A DNA stretch of 28,613 bases from an uncultured archaeon (GCA_964510585.1 CAZECW010000079.1:1-28613), one strand, 5' to 3'. Numbered from the stretch's first letter, positions 11,110-28,612 are shown. The notes: generated by a model from the sequence alone, not told the origin. A program made the numbers and translations.

Positions 11110-11934
11110 TTAACTTGTTTGTGTTTGGGGTATGGTCGGGGTGTTGTTTGCCTTTTTTCGGTGTTCTATTTTTCGGGTGGCTCCCATGCCGCTTGTTCTT
11201 TTGGCTCCTGTATTGGCTGTTGTTGCATACCTTGTTAGCACGTTTATCCAGGATGCGTAGCCTTCAGTGCTTTTTAGGAGGTATTCTAGTGTTCCCGTGA
11301 ATCCGGCTATTTTGCGGGTTTTTCCAATGTCTATTTCCCGGGTTTGTAGGCGGTATATTTTGCGTACGTATACATTTTCTTCCACCCATTCGTGTAGTTC
11401 GTCAGTGTCAACCTGCAATTGGGCCGGAGCATACCTGTTCCAGAGCTGGGCTAGGCTTCCATACATGTATCTCGGATCTGGTAGGAGTAGGGGGAATTCT
11501 CTGGCTTTAATTGCAAATTGGGTGGGTGAGGTGAACTTAACGGTTATTATTTCTTCGGGTTGGGCTGTTTTCACCAATTCCTCATAAGTTGTTCTTTTAA
11601 GCTCTATTCTAACTGGAATGAAAGGGGTTTCTCCAAGTTTGATTTCCTGTCTGCCTTCCAAGATTTTTTGGAATGCCTTCTCTCCAATGCGGTCTTGCAG
11701 GAAGCCAGCGTGGAATCTTATGTGGTCTCCGGGTTTTATCCACCACAAGTTTTCACGTATGCTCATTGGCTGCCCTACAGGTGTGGCTGGAGTTACACTG
11801 TAGGGCCTGGGCTGGTGGGGTTCATGCAGGCTCTCCGCCAGTTCGGGATCAACATTCCTAATCAGGGTTAGCAGGGCCCCCCTTACCAAGTGTCCAGTGA
11901 AGGTTTTCAATCTGCCAGAATCATTGGCCACCAT
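11110..11934 (-). CDS. cas6: CRISPR-associated endoribonuclease Cas6 (RAMP), stand-alone
   Basis: ELAESLHE...PRPYSVTP, VKFTSPTQF, LLPDPRYMYGSLAQLWN, GFTGTLEY and the C-terminal Gly-rich loop NTGAKRTSGMG match the Cas6 motif series. Confidence 0.87.
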   Translation of the reverse strand: MVANDSGRLKTFTGHLVRGALLTLIRNVDPELAESLHEPHQPRPYSVTPATPVGQPMSIRENLWWIKPGDHIRFHAGFLQDRIGEKAFQKILEGRQEIKLGETPFIPVRIELKRTTYEELVKTAQPEEIITVKFTSPTQFAIKAREFPLLLPDPRYMYGSLAQLWNRYAPAQLQVDTDELHEWVEENVYVRKIYRLQTREIDIGKTRKIAGFTGTLEYLLKSTEGYASWINVLTRYATTANTGAKRTSGMGATRKIEHRKKANNTPTIPQTQTS

Positions 11935-16940: not shown

Positions 16941-17096
16941 TTTACATAACTAATATAAATTTTCATTTATTTTTTTAGTTGTTTTTTTTGTTTTTTTGGT
17001 TTTGTGGTTTTTGCTGAATTGTTTTCTATTTTTCGTAAATATTTTCGATTTTTGGTAAAATGTTTGGAGGCAGTTTGGAGGCAACAAAGTAATACC
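16941..17096 (-). repeat. Left copy of a ~155-bp imperfect inverted repeat
   Basis: The reverse complement GGTATTACTTTGTTGCCTCCAAACTGCCTCCAAACATTTTACCAAAAATCGAAAATATTTACGAAAAATAGAAAACAATTCA aligns with 20884 onward. By hand there are about 10 mismatches and 2 gaps over the first ~86 nt; the A-rich outer half aligns more loosely. Confidence 0.9.
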
Positions 17097-17347
17097 TAGT
17101 TAAAAGTATCTACAAAACTAATTGTGTCGCCATCAATGATCCGCATCCCATCCCAGTTAAGCAGAGCAAGAAAAGTATAAAATAGAAGAACGGAACCTAT
17201 TGAACAATTCTGATTTTCAAACATGTTTAATCAAAGCAGAAAATTTTTCGTAAGAATAAAAAATAAAGATGGGCATTACCCTTTTTTCCTATTTTTGAAG
17301 TTGCCACCCACTAGCCCCTTCCCCCTTATTTTGGAAGGGAAATCTCC

Positions 17348-18160
17348 TTATCCTTTGGTAAGCACTTTTGTGTACATGGCGTAAACGAAGACAACCAATG
17401 CAATTATACCTATAATAATTTCAGTCGCTAGAATACTCATAAGGCCCACTACATATAGTACTGCGAATGCGTCAAGTATTATGTGAAGGAACACTGCTAT
17501 AAGGAAATATTTTAGTGTCTTGCCCCTAACAAGACCGTAACCAATTATTGCAGCTGTTGAAGCATGGAAAAGCACTGCCATCATCCTTTCATAGACTGTA
17601 ATTAAGGGAAGCCCAAATAGACTAGGTCCGAAAACAACAGATACCAATATGCTAATCTCTGAAATTAACTGTGGAAGAATGAAAAGGCCCATAAGCAAAC
17701 CTTCCATGCCCATCATAGTCATGGTTAAAAATATATCAAGAAGGATTAAGTCAATTGCCAAGGACAGTTGGTTAAGGAAGAAGTACGCTGCAGCTGAACC
17801 TAGCACCAGTATGGCTTCACCGCCTCCAAAACCTAAGCCGACCACTAAACCATAGAAGGCACCGTTCCCCTCACCAATTTTGGTTCTTATGAAGGGAATA
17901 ATTAGCACCAGTAGTTTAACTGCCTCCTCGATGAATCCCGTAGCTATGAGGTCAACACCGTAAAGAGCAATTCCGCCAAGAAACAGAATATAGATTTTCC
18001 TGAGATAGGCAAGGTAAAAAACCACAGCACCAAGCAGGAAAGCCGCAAAAAGAATACGATAGGGTTCCTCCGCAAATCTAAACTTCTTCACCAAAAACCA
18101 GATGACAAGAGGATAAAGCACAGAAAAAGCAATAGCAAACACTACTCCAATTCCATCCAC
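17348..18160 (-). CDS. PrsW family intramembrane metalloprotease
   Basis: Polytopic protein with GFIEEAVKL, GLGFGGGEAIL, LFHASTAAIIG and FLHIILD, matching the EE.K / GF...E / H / H motif order of the PrsW family. GTG start. Confidence 0.8.
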   Translation of the reverse strand: MDGIGVVFAIAFSVLYPLVIWFLVKKFRFAEEPYRILFAAFLLGAVVFYLAYLRKIYILFLGGIALYGVDLIATGFIEEAVKLLVLIIPFIRTKIGEGNGAFYGLVVGLGFGGGEAILVLGSAAAYFFLNQLSLAIDLILLDIFLTMTMMGMEGLLMGLFILPQLISEISILVSVVFGPSLFGLPLITVYERMMAVLFHASTAAIIGYGLVRGKTLKYFLIAVFLHIILDAFAVLYVVGLMSILATEIIIGIIALVVFVYAMYTKVLTKG

Positions 18161-18930
18161 TCAAAACCACCATTCAAAAATTTTATTTCAAACATGGGAT
18201 AACCTATGATATAAACCTTTTTAAACCATCAAAAATCCAAACAAACCCTACCACCACCCCTTGAGGCCCTCGAAGTCTAACCAGATAAAAAAGAAGCCTA
18301 AAAGACTGGGAATCAGACGTGTACCAAATTAAATAGGAAGTAACACCCAGAGACTTCCTATTTTCAGGAAGAACCAAAAACAGTTGCAAAATAAAAACAA
18401 ATTGAATTCATCACACACAGAGAGAAGCTCACACTAGAAGCACCAACATTTTTTCGGGCAGTATAGAAAAAATGTTAATTCCTGACTCGCAGTCTAGGCT
18501 ACGCTGGAGAAACTTTCCTACCACGCTAAAACAGCTAAAAATTCTCCCTCCCCCAACCTGCACTGAGCCACTAAAAACAGAAAGCGTCTACACCTTCTAT
18601 CACTAGTAACTTAAACTAGGAGAGTTAGGCTTCCTAAAAATTTGAACAGCATACAAATTATTATAAAAATCACGAAATCAAGTTTGAGGATCTACATCTC
18701 TAGTCTTAGAAAGGCATTTTAAGTCGCGTGTCACCAGCTTAGATGATTGTAAACAATGCCTGCGGTTATAAGTGGAAGGAACCTTGGGGGCGGGGTGAAT
18801 GAAGATTATACTAAGGGAACCACACTCTTCAGGGACACTTTAGTATAGGGGTTTTTGGGACTTCTTGTTTTGTTGGTGAAGTTAATAGTTAGTTTGAGCT
18901 TTGGAGGTGGGTGTGGGAGGAAAAATATTG

Positions 18931-18983
18931 ATGAAATGTTATCATGAATAACATTTACTTTTATGAAATGTTACCTTTAAATA
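18931..18983 (+). promoter_or_regulatory. Repeat-rich operator or recombination-like site plus TATA box upstream of the integrase
   Basis: Inverted repeat AAATGTTA-(7 nt)-TAACATTT at 18934-18956, direct repeat ATGAAATGTTA at 18931 and 18963, and TTTAAATA at 18976-18983. Confidence 0.5.
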
Positions 18984-19041
18984 GGGGATTCACTCATATA
19001 TTTTAGGCGTTCCAAAGGCACTTTTCCTAGGGGAAGAAGCC

Positions 19042-20073
19042 ATGAGAAGTAAAAAATATACCCTTAATAATAGTCAGCGTGAGCTCCTTAATAAATTTTT
19101 AAACGATAAAAGGGCGGAGACTCAAATTAAATCTGCCACACTCAAAAACTATGAGAAGTCACTGAGTATCCTTGCCTCCCAAGTCAAAAAGGATCTGGAC
19201 AAAGTTACATCCGCTGATCTTAAAAGGTTTTTTGGGGAACTCGAACGGATGAGGGAAGAGGGAAAAATTTCTGACGCCTCAATTAGACTGTACCGTGTCT
19301 GCATTCGCGCCTTCTACAAATGGCTGGATGGGAATAAGAAGAGTTCCCGGGTGGACTGGATAAAAGTATCCAGGGTTAGAACAAAAATAAAGTCAGAGGA
19401 CCTTCTTAGCGAGGAAGAAATTAGCAGGCTCATTAACAGTGCCAGAACTTTAAGAGACAGAGCACTACTAAGCGTATTGTTGGAATCTGGACTGAGGAGG
19501 GGGGAACTCTGGAGCTTGAATGTGGGCTCAGTAATTCCTGCAAATTATGGTTTTCTTCTCAGCGTGGAGGGAAAGACTGGAACCCGCACCCTACCCTTAA
19601 TCAGCAGTGCAGGAGTTCTTGGCGAGTATCTCTCCACGCTACCAAAAGTTAAGGATTCTCCTTTATGGCTTAGTTCTCGCGGTACACGCCTGTCACAGAT
19701 TTCCATTTGGAGAATTGTTAAAACTTGTGCCAAGAGGGCGGGGATAAGTAAGCGTACCTACGTGCACCTGATGAGACATATGAGAGCCACAGAGCTTTCA
19801 ACCAGGCTCTCAGACCAAACAATGAAGGGATTTTTCGGTTGGAAGCCCACAAGTAACATGCCAGGAGTCTACAGCCACATTTCAGGAAAAGAGGTGGTAC
19901 GCGAAATCCTGAGAGTCTCTGGAGTGAATCTAGATGAAAAAAATAATTCGTCTGGACTAGTGATTTGTCCTCGCTGTAAATTGGCTAATACATCAATTAA
20001 CAATTACTGTGTGCGCTGTGGTACGCCCCTTAAAGAAAGATTGGAAACCTGGCACGAGGAATTTTCGAAATAA
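19042..20073 (+). CDS. Tyrosine recombinase/integrase with a C-terminal Zn ribbon
   Basis: N-terminal core-binding helices (ATLKNYEKSL, SIRLYRVCIRAFYKWL). Catalytic set R (SGLRRGE), K (GKTG), H-x-x-R (HLMRH), W (FGW), Y (VYSH). C-terminal CPRC-x10-CVRC. Confidence 0.93.
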   Translation: MRSKKYTLNNSQRELLNKFLNDKRAETQIKSATLKNYEKSLSILASQVKKDLDKVTSADLKRFFGELERMREEGKISDASIRLYRVCIRAFYKWLDGNKKSSRVDWIKVSRVRTKIKSEDLLSEEEISRLINSARTLRDRALLSVLLESGLRRGELWSLNVGSVIPANYGFLLSVEGKTGTRTLPLISSAGVLGEYLSTLPKVKDSPLWLSSRGTRLSQISIWRIVKTCAKRAGISKRTYVHLMRHMRATELSTRLSDQTMKGFFGWKPTSNMPGVYSHISGKEVVREILRVSGVNLDEKNNSSGLVICPRCKLANTSINNYCVRCGTPLKERLETWHEEFSK

Positions 20074-20175
20074 ACTTGAGTGAAATAGGAGGAGAGAAGA
20101 ATCAATTGAACGGCTATAAATAAGGTATATATTATTGAATTACAAAGAATTTAGGGATAATTGGGATGGTGGTTC

Positions 20176-20838
20176 ATGTTGGAGCAGGAAGGAGTGGACA
20201 AGGTTTGGCTTTTTCAATTGTTTTTACAGATCGCGGGCAGAATTCAAAAAATTTTGGGAAAAGACTATATGCGCATAGCTCTATTCCACATGGGGAACTA
20301 TGTTAGCAGTAGAATTGGCGAGAAAACGCCTGACCTGGATTCTTTGGACAAATTTAGGGTCTACGTTTTACAAAGATTGGGGAAGGTTGGGGATCCCTGG
20401 AATTCTGTGCTTTACGGGATCCTTGAGGCTGATAGGGATTATAAAGCCTCCCTAAAAAGAGGGGAAAGCGGATTCGACAAAGTAGTCAGACTAATTTTAG
20501 AATCCAGCACTGTGGGAAAAGAGCCCATCAAGACTCAAAACATATACGAAGCTACCCAGAAATACTTTGACCTTCTCAAATCAGTTAGGCTTGACATTCT
20601 AGCCTCCATCCAAGAGGTTGACGCAGACACCATAAATGTGGTAATTAGTGACTGTTTATGTAAGGGTTGCTGCAGCGCAGTTCAGGCAGAGAAACTATTT
20701 AGAGACGATGGAACGCCTTTTTGCTGGGCTTTAAAAATAGGCTGCGCCGGAATTTATCAATCGTCTCACAGCCCCTCGGAATACAGGTTACTTGAATTTG
20801 ACAAGCCCCACTGTAGAGGAATAATTCTCAGAATCTGA
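20176..20838 (+). CDS. Hypothetical protein with a Cys-rich C-terminal domain (possibly V4R-like ligand/metal binding)
   Basis: The ORF track starts at 20161; ATG 20176 is an alternative start. The C-terminus has DCLCKGCC...FCWALKIGC...HCRG after a helical N-terminal region. Confidence 0.6.
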   Translation: MLEQEGVDKVWLFQLFLQIAGRIQKILGKDYMRIALFHMGNYVSSRIGEKTPDLDSLDKFRVYVLQRLGKVGDPWNSVLYGILEADRDYKASLKRGESGFDKVVRLILESSTVGKEPIKTQNIYEATQKYFDLLKSVRLDILASIQEVDADTINVVISDCLCKGCCSAVQAEKLFRDDGTPFCWALKIGCAGIYQSSHSPSEYRLLEFDKPHCRGIILRI

Positions 20839-20883
20839 ACTTTTCTTTTTTTAAACTACACTAGTATTTCGGCCACCCTGATT

Positions 20884-21040
20884 GGTAATACTTTACTGCC
20901 TCCAAAATGCCTCCAAAAATATTTACGAAAAATCGAAAAAGTTAACGAAAAATAGAAAACAACTCACAAAACACAACAAAGTAAAAAAATAAAAAGAAGA
21001 ACTAAAAAAATAGAAAAAAATAAAATAAAAAATATGTAAA
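20884..21040 (+). repeat. Right copy of the ~155-bp imperfect inverted repeat
   Basis: GGTAATACTTTACTGCCTCCAAAATGCCTCCAAAAATATTTACGAAAAATCGAAAAAGTTAACGAAAAATAGAAAACAACTCA..., with shared outer anchors AACTAAAAAAATA and TATGTAAA. Confidence 0.9.
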
Positions 21041-21140: not shown

Positions 21141-23162
21141 TTATTTTTCTTGGATCTTATCTAGTTTTTGGATGAGGTCTAGAAGTTCTTTTTGAAGTTT
21201 TTGTTTCTCCTCAATATCTGTGGAGGTTATGGTGCCCTGCATTTCCTTCTTTTCTAATTCGTCTATTTTTGCCTTTACTTCGAATAGGCGGTTCTGGAGT
21301 TTCTCCATTTCTTTTGCGAATTTGGGTTTGGGCTGTGTTGATTGTGAGGGTGTTCTTTGTAGGAAAAGGCTGGCATAGATGTAGTCTTTCTGAACCTTGT
21401 CGTATCGTTCCTCAGTCTTGTACCTTTCATAAATGTATTTTTTGAAGTCTATCTCTCCTGAATCGTACTTGGACTTTAGCTTCTCCAGTTTTTCTCCATA
21501 CTCATTCACTTTCTTCTGAAGTTTTTGTCGGTTCTTGGAGAGTTTCATCACTTTTTGCATCTGAAGCTTGTGTACCTTGTCCAGGTTGATTATTGAGGCG
21601 AGAATAACTGGAAAGGCTTCTGCGAACTGGGATACTTCACCCTTCCATGTTTCAAGTTGTTTTCCGTATTCTTGCTCTATTCTTACAAGGAAATCGTGTA
21701 GCTTGCCCCTAATCCATATCTCCTCATCCAGTCCTATTGCTCCGGTGATGCAGGTTGCAGTGAGCAATTTGCTGTCCTCGCGTATAAATGTGCCAAAATC
21801 AGTTCCCAGCCTTTTCAGACCACCAACCCTCATCTCCTCTAGGAACGTTTTAATTGCAGACATGAAGCCTGAAATTAGTGTCACGTCCTGCTGCATAGAA
21901 ATGAAATCAAGGGACCACAGCGTGGCTCCTGTAGGGTTATGGTCAACAATAATGCTCTCCAAGTTTCTCATGGCATTTAGGGGAACTTTTCTCCTCCTAT
22001 AAGCTGTATAGCCCGAAGCGCCGGCAACAGAAACAGCACCAATTACACCAATGATTAGAAAGTTGCGGAATCGCTCCTGGTTCTGAACCAAAATTGTGAA
22101 AGCATAGATTTGGGAGAACCTCGCAATTAAAAGACTCATAAAAAGACTGGTGCCCTGAACATCGATGACCAAACTAAAAGTGACAGGGTCAAACCATGAG
22201 GAATTAAAAGAAAAGGACAAAACATCTGTGGAGCCCACATTACTAATATTACAAAAACCACTATTCTCACCCGCATCCTCCACATTAAAAATACCGTTAT
22301 CACTAATAACTTGTAAGCCTATCTGGGAAGGACGAGGATGCTCCGGAGTTCCATCCACACAGGCACTCACATATAATCTCATAGAAAAATCTACACTCAA
22401 AGGTTCCAAAATCAATGGTGAAATAGAGGTTAAGTTGTAAGCGGGCCCAAAATCTTCTTCCTCAGAATCATTGCGGTACATCCAGAATAACTCTTTGTAA
22501 GTTGAATCTTGTTTTAAGACTAGGAAAAAGGTGGCATTATCAGTCTGGCTCACATTTAAGGCAACAGTGCCTCCAAATATTGTTAAAATGTCTATTTTTT
22601 TCCATCCAATCTCCCTAATTACATCATACCCATTTATCCATTCAGTGATGCTTTGGCTTGGTTCAACTCTTTCCTCTGTGGGATTCCAGCTAGCGTTATA
22701 AATGGCGAAATCAATCTTTTTTGCGGGTACACCACCAATCAGGTATACGCTAATATTGTATAGGTAACATGTTTGGCTCAGGTTGAAGGACATAGCATAT
22801 GTTTGGCCCTTCAAAGATAAGCCATCGCTTGGAGTCTCCGCAGTACGTATAGTATAATTTCTAGCTTGAACATTTGATATGTTAAAAGTTACATTGTCAA
22901 CCTGTGAGAGGCTCGGCAACCTAATAGTTAATATGGTTCCAGTTGTTACACTGGGATACTCCACATGGTATAATTGGTCTTTGGAAATCAGAGAGTAATC
23001 CTGACAATTTTGGCCCGCAATCCAGTAAAAGTTTGAAAGCTGAGGTGGCATCAGAGCGTCGCGAAAACAAGTTAGGGGAAAAGCTAAGGCGCACACAAAA
23101 AGCAACGCAAAAGAGATTAAAACTATTTTTCTAGCCCAAAAGTTGTTCGCCCTAAAAGTCAA
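21141..23162 (-). CDS. Single-pass surface protein: glycosylated ectodomain, TM, cytoplasmic longin-like domain, C-terminal coiled coils
   Basis: N-terminal hydrophobic signal, many NxS/T sequons confined to the N-terminal half, and a TM (FLIIGVIGAVSVAGASGYTAY-RRRK). Longin-like pattern: LESIIVDHNPTGATLWSLDF...DVTLISGFMSAIKTFLEEM...KLHDFLVRIEQEY...WKGEVSQF. TTG start. Confidence 0.75.
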   Translation of the reverse strand: MTFRANNFWARKIVLISFALLFVCALAFPLTCFRDALMPPQLSNFYWIAGQNCQDYSLISKDQLYHVEYPSVTTGTILTIRLPSLSQVDNVTFNISNVQARNYTIRTAETPSDGLSLKGQTYAMSFNLSQTCYLYNISVYLIGGVPAKKIDFAIYNASWNPTEERVEPSQSITEWINGYDVIREIGWKKIDILTIFGGTVALNVSQTDNATFFLVLKQDSTYKELFWMYRNDSEEEDFGPAYNLTSISPLILEPLSVDFSMRLYVSACVDGTPEHPRPSQIGLQVISDNGIFNVEDAGENSGFCNISNVGSTDVLSFSFNSSWFDPVTFSLVIDVQGTSLFMSLLIARFSQIYAFTILVQNQERFRNFLIIGVIGAVSVAGASGYTAYRRRKVPLNAMRNLESIIVDHNPTGATLWSLDFISMQQDVTLISGFMSAIKTFLEEMRVGGLKRLGTDFGTFIREDSKLLTATCITGAIGLDEEIWIRGKLHDFLVRIEQEYGKQLETWKGEVSQFAEAFPVILASIINLDKVHKLQMQKVMKLSKNRQKLQKKVNEYGEKLEKLKSKYDSGEIDFKKYIYERYKTEERYDKVQKDYIYASLFLQRTPSQSTQPKPKFAKEMEKLQNRLFEVKAKIDELEKKEMQGTITSTDIEEKQKLQKELLDLIQKLDKIQEK

Positions 23163-23419
23163 TCCGCATACCCCGCCACGCCGTCGTTTTTACTATAAAT
23201 TAAACAAAAAAGCATTATAAAAGTTATCCAAAAGATGTACAAAATATCCGGGGAGATAAACTATGTTTTTTGGAACCCTTTACGTGGGAAAAACAAAATA
23301 AGGGCGTAAAAATTTTTAATGATGATTAGAAGGGAAAAATTGGGAAAAACTTTCTCCCCTCATCTCATACGCGGTTAAAAAAGAAAAGTGTTTGATGGGG
23401 ATGGGTTTTGCTGTCCTTT

Positions 23420-26400
23420 CTACTCTTCTGGTTCTTCCTCACTCTTTTTTGGGAATACGGATTTTTCTGTTTCCTCTGTTCCCTTTTCTTCCTCTGATGG
23501 TTCTTGTGGTTCGGGTTTTTGTAAATCTTCGGGTTCTGTTTTTTCTGTTTCTTCTTCTGCTGTTGTTTCTTCTGTTTCTTTTGGTTCTTCTAGTTGTTTT
23601 ATAGGTTTCTTTAGGGCTTCCCTTCTTTCTTCGTCTTCCTCAATCATTTGTAATACTTTGGCGCTGATTTCGCCTGGTACGCCTACTGTTTCGAGAAGTT
23701 TTTCGCGTTCTGTGGGTGTGGCTTTTTTCAATTCTAGGATTAATGCGTGTGCTTCGTCGGGATTCATTCCTGATTCAACTAGTAGGGGTGTTATTAATTG
23801 CTCCAATTCTACTGTGACGTAGCGTTCCTCTTTGGGTTCGATGCCGACAATAGCTAATTCCTGGCGGAGAACAGCTTCTACCACTTGGATTCTGGGTATG
23901 AGTTTAACTGTGATCTTCTCTCCGCGGCTGATTTTTGTTATAAGTTCGTCTATTCTTTTTATAATGGCAGGTATTCTAGCCCTCTTAATGTATGCATAGG
24001 TTGTGAAGGAGATTGTAGGTATAGCGACAGCTGAAACCACAAGTAGGAATGTGGTCTTTGGAATTCGAACATTAAGTAGGGGTATAAATATTGAGGTCTC
24101 CCCTACTGAGAGGAATATAGGGGATTGCTGTGTCTGGTAATTGTTGTAGCTGGCGGTAATTACTCCAAACAGGTTTCCTGGTGGAAGATTGTATGTTGGA
24201 ATGAAGGTTAAGTAGACTCCCGGCATAACTTCAACTAGAGTGAATATCATTGAGCCGAACTGCAATGTCACATTGGCACCAGTTAGTGGCGAGTGGGGAC
24301 CGGGTGTGTGGTAGTAGAAGATGATGGGGGTTAGAGGAACAGAGTTTTCAACCTGGATGTACGGTCCAAGGTATACTATTGCGGATGAGGCGATTGGTGG
24401 AATGAGAAAAGCATCTCCCAGAATGGTTGGAGCACCAAGAACACTGAGGATCGTGCTTTCCTCCTTAAACTGGTAGTTGGGTTTACTTGCTGAAATTTCA
24501 AGCGTGTAGCTAGTCGCAGTCAGAACAGTGGTGTTTATCTGAGCAGTATAGTTACCACTTCCAATATATGTCATAGAACCGGCATACTCGGTGCCCTTAA
24601 TACTCCAAGTGAGAACTGCGCCATCCACCGGCCCCTCGGGGGAGATTTGGGTATAAACAGCGTATATTGTTAGGTTCTCGCCCCAATAAATTTGGAACGT
24701 TAAGGAAGTTTCAAGCTTTGTCTGAACGTATTCGATCTCCAAGCTGATGGCGACTGAACCAGCAGTGTGGTTATCCCAGGAGAGACCAATTGTAACAGTG
24801 TAGCTACCAGCTGACAACTGTCTTAAGAATTCGTAGGAAATCTCATAGTTCCCACCGGTCTCATTCATAGTGCCAGAAAAGCCTCCGGGCGAGATGGTAA
24901 AGCTTAGAGGCGCTCCACTAACAGGCAGATTGTTATGTGTATCATTTAGGCGGGCTTGAATGCTGAAACTTGTATTCCAAGTTACAGTAATGTTTGTGCT
25001 GCTTGGCAATATTTCCAACGGAAGGTTATTCAACGGACTAATATACAGTGTTAAAGGCGTAGGATAAGTGTAATTGGCAGTTTCACTGGGTTCTGCAGTT
25101 ATCACAATGAAATAGTTCTGTCCACCATAAATTGTTCCGAAGTCGAATGTTATGCTCCATTTGCCAGTAGTTGAAGGATCCTTCGTCATTTTTGCAGGTC
25201 CGTAGAGGACATGTTCGGTGGTGTTTTTCAACGTGAAGTTCATCCAGTTTGCATCTATGCCTTGACCATTAGGATGCTTTATCCAAAACACGAAGGTAAC
25301 GCTGTCATTCCAGTAAATGTTAGTGAAGAAAGTACCGTTACTACATTCAAGACGCGGAGTAACTTGACCTATCGACCTATTCAGCGTTGCCAGGAAGAAC
25401 TTGGAGCTACTCATATCCACTAAGCGACCCAAACCACTAAGTGTCCCCTCAGGTTTGCTCTCGTTTACGTTCCACAGGGAGAAGTTTTCAGGATTAGGTG
25501 GATAACTGTAGGTGGTGTTAATAGTAATGTTTACTTCCTCGTTGGCGTAAACATAAAGGGTTATTTGTGCTAAGTACTGGTCTACTGATTGGTCAGAAAT
25601 GTTGTAGTCTGAAAGGCTGGGGTTCGTGTAGTTCACTGAAACTTGTGCCTTCTGCACATAGGTCCCATAAAAGTCCTGAACCAGTAAATATAGTTTGGTA
25701 ACATTCATCTCAATGTCAAAAGTCGAGCTATTAACCCCGGGAACCCATGCATAATCCCACCGCCAAACATAAGTCCTATAGGGAGTGGTGAGATTAGCCT
25801 CAATCCAGTACCCATCGGTTTTCTCAAAAAGTTGGAAGTTGCACCTCCCACTGGAGTCTGTAGACCCGGAAGCATTCACACCGTCCCACGGCGTATTATA
25901 AATTGTGACGGTAACATTTTCCGTGAGAGGATTGTCAAATGGGTCAGTAACTGTGATGTTAAGATCGAAGAAAACCTTTTCCTGAGTAGCGTTAACACTG
26001 ACGGTGAGGGCGTGGTTTCTCTGCATCATTTCTGCAAAGGTTTCAAACTCGTCTATCCCGTTAGCTCCGTTCCACATGTAGTTTGCAAACTTTTCATAGA
26101 TTAAGCTCCCAACGTCCACAGCAGTACTTGGCCACTGTCTATCCCAGTACTCATAGTATGTGTAAGAGGGCTGGTGTACTAGATAGGACCATCCAGAAGT
26201 ACTAACCACACTGTACACGGGACTTATTAGATCCACTGTTCCCATTGCTTCTTTATCGCTGGTGTCGTAGAATGCAAACCATAACGCTTTCCCAATATCT
26301 CTATTTTGGAACTGAGTCCACCAGTTGGTATAAGTGATTTTTTGTCCCGCTTCTGTCTTGTAGGTTAAGGTGGGCATGATTTTGTCATTAAAGACCCACT

Positions 26401-27304
26401 CATTGTTCCTGTATAGGGCGCTTCCATATGCTTGGTAAAACGTGGAGTTTGTTTCACAGATCCATCCCCACTCGAAAAATCTGTAGGTTATGTTGGTTGT
26501 GGCGTTAACCGTACCTCCCAGTCTTGCCAGTGTTGTGTATGTAACAAATAGGGGGCCATCGCTTAGTATTCCATAAGATAGTGGAGGATACTTTGAGGTA
26601 GAATCATAGTTGGGATAGTCGGGGTTCCAGTGGAAACCATAGCTTGTAGCGGGTTGTGATGTCCACCATGTTCCAGATATTTTGTTGTAGCTGTTGTATA
26701 GTTTTCCACCCTTGGCGGTGAGTGAGCAGTAGGCAAGATAGTTTGATGTATTAAATATGTAGTTGTTGCCATCGGTGGTGTAGTTTACGGTGTCTGTGTA
26801 GCTGGGCATCCAGACTGGGGCTGAATCATTATAGTAAATGTAATAGGTGGCTGTGCTACTTGCTGTGACGTTAACGTAAAACGTTATGGTTGCGGACTGT
26901 AAATAGTTTGTTTGGGGGTAGAGTGTGGTGTTCCAGACCTGGCATGGTATGGGGCCAGTCATCCAGCCTCCAGTCTCATTGTAGCGGTACTGTGGAACCA
27001 GTATTGAGCCATTATAGCACGTGCCTGGCTCAAAGGTTAAATATACGTCAACCAGATTATTTATTCGATTAATACCGTTTGTCTCTGTAAAGTTGACCTG
27101 CGTTCTATAACGGAATGAAGTATTCCACCATGAGGGCTCATAAGGGCTTTTTGTAGATATGGGCTGAGAATATGCAGAGGAGGGAAAAGTGTAGGGTGAA
27201 CCAAGAAGAGGCGGCGTTATGAACAGTGGGATCACCGTGGCTAGTAGTAGAGCGAGAAGAATGACTGTTGCGGTAAGGGGAAGAAGTCGCCTTCTCAGAA
27301 ACAT
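23420..27304 (-). CDS. Large cell-surface glycoprotein: DUF2341-like N-terminal domain, Ig-like beta-sandwich repeats, one C-terminal TM, cytoplasmic domain with acidic tail
   Basis: GGAGG RBS and a hydrophobic N-terminus. WWNTSFRYRTQVNF...VDVYLTF...ITFYVNV...TYYIYY resembles DUF2341. Thr/Tyr/Asn-rich repeats (TITVTWN...RLNDTHNNLPVSGA; IYWGENLTIYAVY...PVDGA), dozens of sequons, TM (FLLVVSAVAIPTISFTTYAYI-KRAR), and a Glu/Pro/Thr-rich tail. Confidence 0.8.
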   Translation of the reverse strand: MFLRRRLLPLTATVILLALLLATVIPLFITPPLLGSPYTFPSSAYSQPISTKSPYEPSWWNTSFRYRTQVNFTETNGINRINNLVDVYLTFEPGTCYNGSILVPQYRYNETGGWMTGPIPCQVWNTTLYPQTNYLQSATITFYVNVTASSTATYYIYYNDSAPVWMPSYTDTVNYTTDGNNYIFNTSNYLAYCSLTAKGGKLYNSYNKISGTWWTSQPATSYGFHWNPDYPNYDSTSKYPPLSYGILSDGPLFVTYTTLARLGGTVNATTNITYRFFEWGWICETNSTFYQAYGSALYRNNEWVFNDKIMPTLTYKTEAGQKITYTNWWTQFQNRDIGKALWFAFYDTSDKEAMGTVDLISPVYSVVSTSGWSYLVHQPSYTYYEYWDRQWPSTAVDVGSLIYEKFANYMWNGANGIDEFETFAEMMQRNHALTVSVNATQEKVFFDLNITVTDPFDNPLTENVTVTIYNTPWDGVNASGSTDSSGRCNFQLFEKTDGYWIEANLTTPYRTYVWRWDYAWVPGVNSSTFDIEMNVTKLYLLVQDFYGTYVQKAQVSVNYTNPSLSDYNISDQSVDQYLAQITLYVYANEEVNITINTTYSYPPNPENFSLWNVNESKPEGTLSGLGRLVDMSSSKFFLATLNRSIGQVTPRLECSNGTFFTNIYWNDSVTFVFWIKHPNGQGIDANWMNFTLKNTTEHVLYGPAKMTKDPSTTGKWSITFDFGTIYGGQNYFIVITAEPSETANYTYPTPLTLYISPLNNLPLEILPSSTNITVTWNTSFSIQARLNDTHNNLPVSGAPLSFTISPGGFSGTMNETGGNYEISYEFLRQLSAGSYTVTIGLSWDNHTAGSVAISLEIEYVQTKLETSLTFQIYWGENLTIYAVYTQISPEGPVDGAVLTWSIKGTEYAGSMTYIGSGNYTAQINTTVLTATSYTLEISASKPNYQFKEESTILSVLGAPTILGDAFLIPPIASSAIVYLGPYIQVENSVPLTPIIFYYHTPGPHSPLTGANVTLQFGSMIFTLVEVMPGVYLTFIPTYNLPPGNLFGVITASYNNYQTQQSPIFLSVGETSIFIPLLNVRIPKTTFLLVVSAVAIPTISFTTYAYIKRARIPAIIKRIDELITKISRGEKITVKLIPRIQVVEAVLRQELAIVGIEPKEERYVTVELEQLITPLLVESGMNPDEAHALILELKKATPTEREKLLETVGVPGEISAKVLQMIEEDEERREALKKPIKQLEEPKETEETTAEEETEKTEPEDLQKPEPQEPSEEEKGTEETEKSVFPKKSEEEPEE

Positions 27305-27853: not shown

Positions 27854-28612
27854 TTATTTTTGAAGTTTGTCCAGTTTTTCAATGAGTTTCATTAATTCCT
27901 TGTAAAGCTTGTCTCTGCGTTTAATGTCCTGTGAGGTTATGGTGCCATCCAATTCTTTTCTGCGTAGTTCCTCTATTTCCATTCGAATTTTAAGAAATCT
28001 GTCCTGGATTTTTTCCACTTCTCTTGTAACTTCTGGTGTGGGCTTCCCCGCTTCCAGTCTTGGTGGTACTCTTGAGAGGCAGAGGCTTGTGTGAATGTAC
28101 TCCTTCTGAACCTCGTCATATTTTGGTTCAATCTTGGCTCTTGCAGTCTCATACTTTGACTCACTAATTTTTCCCGACTCCGCCTGCTGAGTCAAATCTT
28201 CAAGCTGGGAACCAAGCTTGTTAAGTTCCATTTGAAGTTTCTCTTTGCTCCTTTGCAGCTTTGAGATTCTTTTCCGAACCAACCTCTCAGCCTTATCCAA
28301 ATCAATCACCGAAGCAAGAATTAAGGGAAGCGACTCCCTGAAAGTTTGAACGTCACCCCTCCAATTTTGGAGCAGGTCCAAGTGTTGCGACTCAGCTTCG
28401 GCTAAGAAGCTCCGTAGCTTCCTTCTAATCCACTCCTCCTCTTGAGGGGTGTTGCCACAAGTAATGCAGGTTGCCGTTAAAAAGTCTCCGTCTTCCCTTA
28501 TGAAGGTACCAAGCTCAGTTTCCAGTTTTCTTAGACCACCCTTTTGCATCTCACCCATAAATGACTTAACCGCCGACATAAAACCAGAAACCAGCGTCAC
28601 ATCCTGCTCCAT
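27854..28612 (-). CDS. Partial (5' end outside window) paralog of the 673-aa longin/coiled-coil protein
   Basis: The frame is open to the window edge. QDVTLVSGFMSAVKSFMGEM..GGLRKL..E.GTFIRED...LTATCIT is collinear with the 21141..23162 product through to the C-terminal KLDKLQK. Confidence 0.8.
   Translation of the reverse strand: MEQDVTLVSGFMSAVKSFMGEMQKGGLRKLETELGTFIREDGDFLTATCITCGNTPQEEEWIRRKLRSFLAEAESQHLDLLQNWRGDVQTFRESLPLILASVIDLDKAERLVRKRISKLQRSKEKLQMELNKLGSQLEDLTQQAESGKISESKYETARAKIEPKYDEVQKEYIHTSLCLSRVPPRLEAGKPTPEVTREVEKIQDRFLKIRMEIEELRRKELDGTITSQDIKRRDKLYKELMKLIEKLDKLQK

Follow-up and report, generated by a model that had tools for sequence, protein, structure and literature searches.

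A single-copy tyrosine-recombinase module between mirror-image repeats in the Asgard genus Freyarchaeum, possibly a site-specific system of the Xer/dif type

Does an intact integrase gene set between long inverted repeats have to be a mobile element, or can it be a fixed part of the chromosome that carries it? The question is raised by a 4.1-kb unit (16941-21040) in a stretch of 28,613 nucleotides of DNA from an uncultured archaeon, here called the window, along which positions are counted. The names attached to near-identical proteins place the host in Candidatus Jordarchaeaceae/Freyarchaeota, among the Asgard archaea, in the genus Freyarchaeum. Eight hot-spring metagenome runs contain this DNA. 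An earlier, sequence-only reading had described the unit as compact and recombinase-driven, either transposon-like or invertible, with mobility favoured, and had named as its alternative a dispersed repeat that terminates the flanking genes. The unit was compared with the window's own genome (G000; 3.78 Mb in 217 contigs), with the related genomes G001 to G005, of which G005 is the complete genome of the wetland archaeon Candidatus Freyarchaeum deiterrae (3,576,204 bp; PMC11291895), and with the metagenomic contigs L077-L080, L097-L100 and L143-L145. The module is single-copy and chromosomal and appears to be vertically inherited, and it looks like neither a transposon nor a phase switch. As for what it does, with a likelihood that we put not far below even, it is a self-contained module of the Xer/dif type, comparable to XerS-difSL, which replaces XerA and in which the repeats are polar boundary elements. 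Its features, in order along the window, are these.

16941-17012, + strand: outer, T-rich part of the left repeat, with oligo-T runs of 4-8 on the strand transcribed into the module
17013-17096, + strand: conserved core of the left repeat, from CTGAAT to GTAATACC
17348-18160, - strand: gene for a polytopic membrane protein of the YhfC/PrsW-like kind (Pfam PF10086), putatively an intramembrane metalloprotease
18161-18929, no strand: long divergent intergenic region, poorly conserved in a 7-species alignment
18930-18975, + strand: palindrome with a third arm, candidate core (dif-like) site of the recombinase and/or autoregulatory operator, conserved in 7 species (left arm 18930-18942, spacer 18943-18947, right arm 18948-18958)
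18963-18975: third arm, in direct orientation, abutting the TATA box
18976-18983, + strand: putative TATA box of the recombinase gene, TTTAAATA
19042-20073, + strand: gene for a tyrosine recombinase of 343 aa, with a SAM-like N domain, PF00589 and a C-terminal CxxC...CxxC zinc ribbon
20176-20838 (start at 20161 or 20176), + strand: gene for a clade-restricted Cys-rich protein of 220 aa, from sequence and alignment
20884-20967, - strand: conserved core of the right repeat, mirror image of 17013-17096
20968-21040, - strand: outer part of the right repeat, T-rich on the - strand, which is read inward from the side of the 673-aa gene

The two arms, each of about 155 bp (16941-17096 on the + strand and 20884-21040 on the - strand), form an inverted repeat around exactly three genes, which encode the YhfC/PrsW-like protein, the tyrosine recombinase and the Cys-rich protein. 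The gene and Pfam tables agree in this with the sequence-only reading, which was also right in placing both arms of the window between convergent genes and in seeing no tRNA; neither a tRNA nor an Rfam family is present in the whole window. Aligned without gaps, the arms match at 72% over 119 nt and at 74% over 68 nt; a gapped alignment gives a mean column identity of 82%, and BLAST gives 83% over 138 nt (E 6.8e-33). This similarity is not due to chance, and the repeat is not dispersed. A search of the own genome with BLAST and with an nhmmer profile of the core returned two copies, both at the recombinase module, and no third; the remaining matches are short T-rich stretches, and the dispersed terminator repeat offered as the alternative falls with this count. 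The complete genome G005 has two full copies and one partial copy, 1.8 kb away (L054 6155-6231, corresponding to G005 3472155-3472231).

Within each arm a core and an outer part can be told apart, based on two alignments, of 10 and of 16 copies, that draw on 8 lineages. The core of about 85 nt contains two TTTTCG-AAA units of about 20 nt each. In the left repeat it carries the tandem 11-mers TTTGGAGGCAG and TTTGGAGGCAA at 17063-17084, and across the 16-copy alignment the 11-mer TTTGGAGGCAN occurs in one or two copies. Homology ends abruptly at the inner edge of the core. Because the core is 54-87% identical between species where other, neighbouring intergenic DNA cannot be aligned at all, it is under selection. 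In sequence the outer part varies more than the core, yet its T-richness is kept in the 16 copies, and each of them (16/16) has 5-15 T-runs of at least 4 on the inward-reading strand. In some genomes the two arms have been homogenised: they are 88-94% identical in G005, 82-91% in G002 and, in L080, 90%, and no more than 82% identical to arms from other genomes; in L077 and L079, where the arms are just 68-69% identical, there has been no such homogenisation. The repeat of G002 has diverged too far from the window copy for BLAST to recognise it. RNA structure in the repeats is not significant (folding z-scores from -1.3 to +0.7, and no match in Rfam), and a dyad-symmetric site of the core type is absent from them.

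The order repeat, PrsW-like gene, recombinase, Cys-rich gene and repeat, with exactly two inverted copies, is found in G000, G004, G005, G002, L077/L078, L079, L080, L097/L098, L099, L100, L143/L144 and L145, and so in 8 or more lineages of the genus. Every genome of the genus whose locus is assembled has the module, in a single copy; in G001 (87% complete) and in G003 the locus is broken at contig ends, beside or within the module. An empty site, whose absence, along with that of rearranged reads, the sequence-only reading had named as counting against its proposal, was sought in relatives, and none was found among the genomes searched. For G005 this search is uninformative, since apgM, the neighbour of the module in the window, lies there about 485 kb from the module and none of the neighbours that apgM has in the window turned up in the 10 kb or so to each side of it. 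The same left neighbourhood (C48-MFS-159 aa-146 aa) occurs in G000/G004 and in L077/L099/L100/L097/G005, and G000/G004 can be said to share it because contig C153 of G004 joins C79, C21 and C48 of G000; this same contig put an end to an idea of three unrelated insertion sites. The right-hand neighbours vary by species (apgM, GHMP kinase or the C193 block), owing to local inversions and inserted variable genes, amid generally poor synteny. The recombinase is 91%, 77% and 74% identical to that of G000 in G004, G002 and G005, and apgM is 92% and 80% identical in G004 and G005, so the divergence of the module proteins tracks that of the host. The compact unit first described thus stands, now as a conserved assembly of repeats and genes which varies in orientation and whose arms co-evolve in some genomes. 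The mobility ascribed to it finds no support, given the single copy, the divergence that follows the host, the shared left flank and the want of an empty site.

The recombinase itself scores 60 bits with PF00589 and is the sole PF00589 gene in G000, G004, G002 and the complete G005; it was not found in G001 or G003, the two genomes with the broken locus. Its best PDB match is XerA of P. abyssi (4a8e, E 1.6e-17), and XerA of Thermoplasma is also among the best solved relatives. The catalytic R, K, HxxR, W/H and Y all align with 4a8e, in the contexts GLRRGEL, GKTG, HLMRH, GW and VYSH. All lineages have an intact gene, which is under purifying selection. Canonical XerA (NF040815, 233-285 bits) occurs in 8 of 41 Asgard relatives, and within the genus this gene alone matches the profile, at about 125 bits.

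About 60 nt upstream of the start codon of the recombinase lies the palindrome with its third arm. In G000 this is the top inverted pair by far, with 36.9 bits (the next has 25.1), and G005, G004 and G002 each contain the pattern a single time, at the recombinase gene in every case. It is kept in 7 species, with a symmetric, compensatory change of A..T to C..G in G005 and L080. Downstream of it, positions 18976-18983 would be an archaeal TATA box by the established promoter consensus, and read TTTAAATA or TTTATATA in the 7 species. Archaeal dif sites have been identified by the same features, uniqueness and conservation of a palindromic site (PMC2958812). A link between the palindrome arms and the repeats through the 12-mer TGARWTGTTWYC, of whose 20 genomic matches 4 fall inside the module, was considered and did not hold up against a weight matrix.

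The complete genome G005 also allows the module to be placed on the chromosome. Its Orc1/Cdc6 genes are at 1.637, 1.681 and 1.684 Mb, the cumulative GC skew has its maximum at 1.675-1.68 Mb, and long open reading frames (ORFs) diverge from there; the region around 1.68 Mb with Orc1/Cdc6 marks the origin. According to the published analysis, the skew of G005 fits bidirectional replication (PMC11291895). The module occupies 3.474-3.478 Mb, which is 5.4 kb away from the antipode of the Orc1/Cdc6 pair, and the best skew change point is at 3.516 Mb, 40 kb from the module, where the skew goes from -0.030 to +0.019 over 1.2 Mb. Coming from one genome with a weak skew, these figures argue with moderate force for a position in the terminus zone. 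In the two regions concerned (1.48-1.88 Mb; 2.88-0.5 Mb), the skew maximum falls at the divergent Orc1/Cdc6 pair and the minimum opposite to it, the reverse of the bacterial convention, and software that takes the minimum for the origin would annotate G005 wrongly.

If the module is of the Xer/dif type, the recombinase would act on the single palindromic site at 18930-18975, by its own promoter, and would in this way resolve chromosome dimers, the module standing in for the canonical XerA that the genus lacks. The repeats would be polar boundary elements. Since archaeal RNA polymerase terminates at oligo-T, the oligo-T tracts, read from outside, would block incoming transcription; the core of about 85 bp, with its internal direct repeats, would probably bind a protein, and the mirror-image orientation of the repeats would give both sides of the module the same polarity. 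Systems built on one recombinase are known from bacteria. In XerS-difSL of streptococci and lactococci and in XerH-difH of epsilon-proteobacteria, a single tyrosine recombinase replaces the canonical Xer system, and here likewise the recombinase is the sole one. As summarised in PMC2958812 and PMC2731167, the XerS or XerH gene adjoins its own unique site at the terminus, to which correspond here a unique palindrome 60 nt upstream of the start codon and a location in the zone of the skew switch. The differences lie in the archaeal host without FtsK, the zinc ribbon, the 155-bp inverted repeats and the two extra genes, and the likeness is put forward as one of analogy. XerA/dif of P. abyssi, Thermoplasma and T. 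kodakarensis, on the other hand, offers the best structural-sequence match, and both systems have one unique, conserved intergenic palindrome per chromosome. In Thermococcales xerA is not adjacent to dif (PMC2958812), and in H. volcanii a putative dif lies upstream of the xerA operon.

Several observations weigh against this Xer/dif-type reading. The recombinase reaches 124 bits with the NCBIfam profile XerA_Arch NF040815 (121-127 in relatives of the genus), below the cut-off of 220 bits, and by this measure it is not an XerA orthologue. Many of the Asgard genomes searched are without any match to the XerA family, and an Xer system may for that reason be dispensable in this group. Beyond the genus, the recombinase has as its nearest relatives, at 33-39% identity, ordinary integrases of about 400 aa, several of them with zinc ribbons; because they sit in integrated elements, the recombinase was probably recruited, or is descended, from a mobile-element integrase family. 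Around these integrases there is neither a PrsW nor a Cys-rich gene, and their gene neighbourhoods are otherwise dissimilar. Archaeal element integrases include Int-pTN3 of Thermococcus nautili, for which homology-dependent recombination is outlined in PMC5495485; the module differs from archaeal integrated elements in being fixed in the genus and in having neither element genes nor a tRNA target nor direct att repeats. Aloposons (PMC8813620) were also considered and are unrelated, being giant genes with tRNA targets. The palindrome, too, departs from expectation. The yardstick was the classic dif geometry, 11-6-11 with TAA-N6-8-TTA, the latter being the typical archaeal dif signature (PMC11840125); the arms here are of 9-11 nt, the spacer is of 5-7 nt and the signature is TTA-N7-TAA, so that the lengths of arms and spacer differ from those of archaeal dif sites and TAA-N-TTA is absent. 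Moreover, the palindrome overlaps the recombinase promoter, in the region of the B recognition element (BRE) and the TATA box, and given this overlap it may be a plain operator. A direct link between recombinase and repeats is missing, because a weight matrix of the palindrome arms misses the repeats: 0 positions in them reach 9 bits, against 665 sites in the genome. On the chromosome of G005, the minimum of the cumulative skew is a broad plateau of 280 kb, from 3.40 Mb to 0.10 Mb, which contains the module, and a k-mer strand skew trained at the origin is noisy, with no clean switch at the module. Lastly, the reading offers no role for the PrsW-like and the Cys-rich genes.

These two genes and the DNA between them have features of their own. 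The PrsW-like protein matches PF10086 (YhfC) at a borderline 24.5 bits (cut-off 24.2), over 210 of 222 profile positions, and has no match in a PrsW-specific family; its orthologues in relatives are 62-84% identical. A second PrsW-like copy lies just outside the module, inverted with respect to the inner one, in G005 (L054 5063-5947) and in L145 (11212-12003). Together with the partial repeat of G005, this extra copy looks like an inverted duplication in progress. The Cys-rich protein has 5 invariant Cys and a sixth that is nearly invariant in the alignment. It is found in 14 clusters, all of them Freyarchaeota/Jordarchaeia except for one record labelled Lokiarchaeia, and it belongs to no Pfam or NCBIfam family. 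Its AF2 model is poor (pLDDT 55.7), and Foldseek searches of AFDB clusters and of the Atlas gave unnamed or weak leads alone (V4R, RdxA_C and MJ0207, at 0.85-0.88). The gene is intact in G005 and seemingly degenerate in L097 (9117-9606) and L098 (6980-7162), where ORFs of 42-60 aa alone are called; in L145 the stretch from the recombinase to the right repeat has no called gene. Given the degenerate copies in relatives of Ca. F. deiterrae, the gene may be dispensable. Both transcription units begin centrally, at conserved TATA-like elements (for the PrsW-like gene at about 18207-18221), and stop short of the repeats at T-runs, namely an A-run on the + strand, T6 on the gene strand, about 85 nt past the PrsW-like stop, and a T7 run after the Cys-rich stop. 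A 61-aa ORF in the divergent region (18204-18389) is not conserved. In L080 (1534-1860), L097 (7429-7740) and L145 (8409-8744) a small DUF5658 gene separates the PrsW-like gene from the recombinase; it is absent in G000/G004, whose intergenic region of 880-940 nt can be aligned at its two promoter ends alone. A scan for bacterial promoters and terminators, which is not applicable to archaea, stayed at background level.

Of the alternatives, the one that survives best is that the parts are unconnected, and we regard it as unlikely. The recombinase would be a fixed remnant of an old element together with its autoregulatory operator, and the repeats a relic inverted duplication of a terminator region, kept for termination. 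Such an account draws on the mobile-element integrases that are the closest outside relatives, on the overlap of the palindrome with the BRE/TATA region, on the abundance of T-runs on the inward-reading strand, on the flanking genes that converge on the module in G000, G004 and G005, and on the inverted duplication of the PrsW-like gene with part of the repeat that seems to be under way in G005 and L145. Against this, a plain oligo-T terminator has no need of a core of about 85 bp that is not T-rich and has a sharp inner edge, in both arms and in 8 lineages, and the flanking genes do not always read inward (L077, L099, L100 and the right side of G002). The recombinase, moreover, is intact in all lineages, where it is under purifying selection, and is the sole one of the genome; a relic would be expected to be missing from some species, and 0 of the assembled loci are without the module.

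An invertible cassette is a less probable explanation again. Here the recombinase, in a site-specific or homology-dependent manner, or host homologous recombination would exchange the repeats and flip a segment of 3.8 kb. Salmonella Hin/hix and the yeast 2-micron Flp system, with inverted repeats of 599 bp, are invertible segments that carry their own recombinase; the recombinase gene between inverted repeats is a shared feature, and the palindrome with its third arm recalls FRT. Int-pTN3, for its part, reportedly inverts DNA between homologous stretches of about 100 bp. The homogenised arms of G005, G002 and L080 would require physical exchange between arms, and the orientation of the module relative to the shared left flank is opposite in G000/G004/G005 and in L077/L097/L099/L100. 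In L145, compared with its close relative L097, the entire repeat-bounded module is inverted relative to LF and adh_short/RF. An inversion of the cassette alone had been suspected between G005 and L077, and was given up once comparison with L097 (recombinase at least 90% identical to the G005 one) revealed in G005 a single inversion of 8.1 kb, which takes in the module and two neighbour genes (ferritin-like and adh_short) and has one breakpoint outside any repeat. In G000/G004 three large genes lie between the shared left flank and the inverted module, and L145 has a composite history, because it also carries an extra PrsW copy. The differences in orientation among relatives therefore appear to have arisen via larger or composite inversions. 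All 7 contigs with an identical recombinase, from 7 different samples, have one orientation, with the qualification that consensus contigs hide minor forms; the arms of L077 and L079 are not homogenised; and the repeats have neither a dyad-symmetric site of the core type nor a match to the palindrome arms. In contrast to Hin/hix and Flp, no flipping is seen at the level of the population and there is no outward promoter or switched gene, and in contrast to Flp the FRT-like site is central and not within the repeats. With transcription that starts centrally and ends at T-runs before the repeats, a flip would switch nothing obvious, as the sequence-only reading had already remarked. The locus appears prone to inversion, yet it does not behave like a transposon. 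Symmetric inversions are common at the terminus, and recurrent inversions that take in the module would fit a location there.

A long shot is that the repeats are opposed polar elements which halt replication forks or SMC loop extruders around a non-canonical dif-like site. The module would then be a compact organiser of the terminus, with a recombinase recruited from a mobile element to replace XerA. The dif site of T. kodakarensis lies in an A-tract-rich intergenic region of 1.9 kb between convergent genes, with SMC stalled on both sides (PMC11840125), and the site of the module is likewise flanked on both sides by T/A-tract elements; it differs in that about 2 kb separate the repeats from the palindrome, and in the specific conserved core of the repeats. 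Least probable, and largely refuted, is a compact transposon with the inverted repeats as ends and the tyrosine recombinase as transposase: terminal inverted repeats of about 150 bp with internal direct repeats do occur at some transposon ends, and the right-hand neighbours do differ among species, but the module has one copy per genome (the complete G005 included), is in every assembled genome of the genus with a common left neighbourhood and a divergence that follows the host, and its outer ends fade into T-rich DNA and cannot be placed to the base, so that no target-site duplication can be defined; no flanking direct repeat is evident.

The surroundings of the module in the window also deserve description. 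Adjoining it are the genes for the 673-aa and 1294-aa proteins (21141-27304), large, fast-evolving paralogues for which Pfam gives a weak EAD11 match alone (18.5 bits). The 673-aa family has 3-8 matches per genome of the genus; in G003 stops truncate it (C111:31390-31836), and in L082 it is shortened to 189 aa. By collinearity with contig C153 of G004, the end of the window (27854-28612) joins the end of C21, reversed, and then C48, and the partial 252-aa ORF at this end continues as C21:13721-16287, which would make a protein of more than 1100 aa, paralogous to the 673-aa gene. Elsewhere in the window, a solitary Cas6 gene (11110-11934) has an OB-fold/RPA-like gene on one side and TBP on the other; the window contains no array, and the same arrangement is found in contigs L082 and L143.

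If the module is indeed an Xer/dif-type system in place of XerA, it would be the first concrete candidate for dimer resolution in an Asgard lineage without XerA. An element-derived recombinase would then have taken the place of XerA without being its orthologue, with the site travelling with the gene, and the conserved mirror-image repeats would represent accessory or boundary elements of a new kind, placed around a site of this sort. Finding an intact 'integrase' flanked by long inverted repeats does not by itself make a locus a mobile element, and mobile-element callers that rely on tyrosine recombinases would mislabel this core locus.

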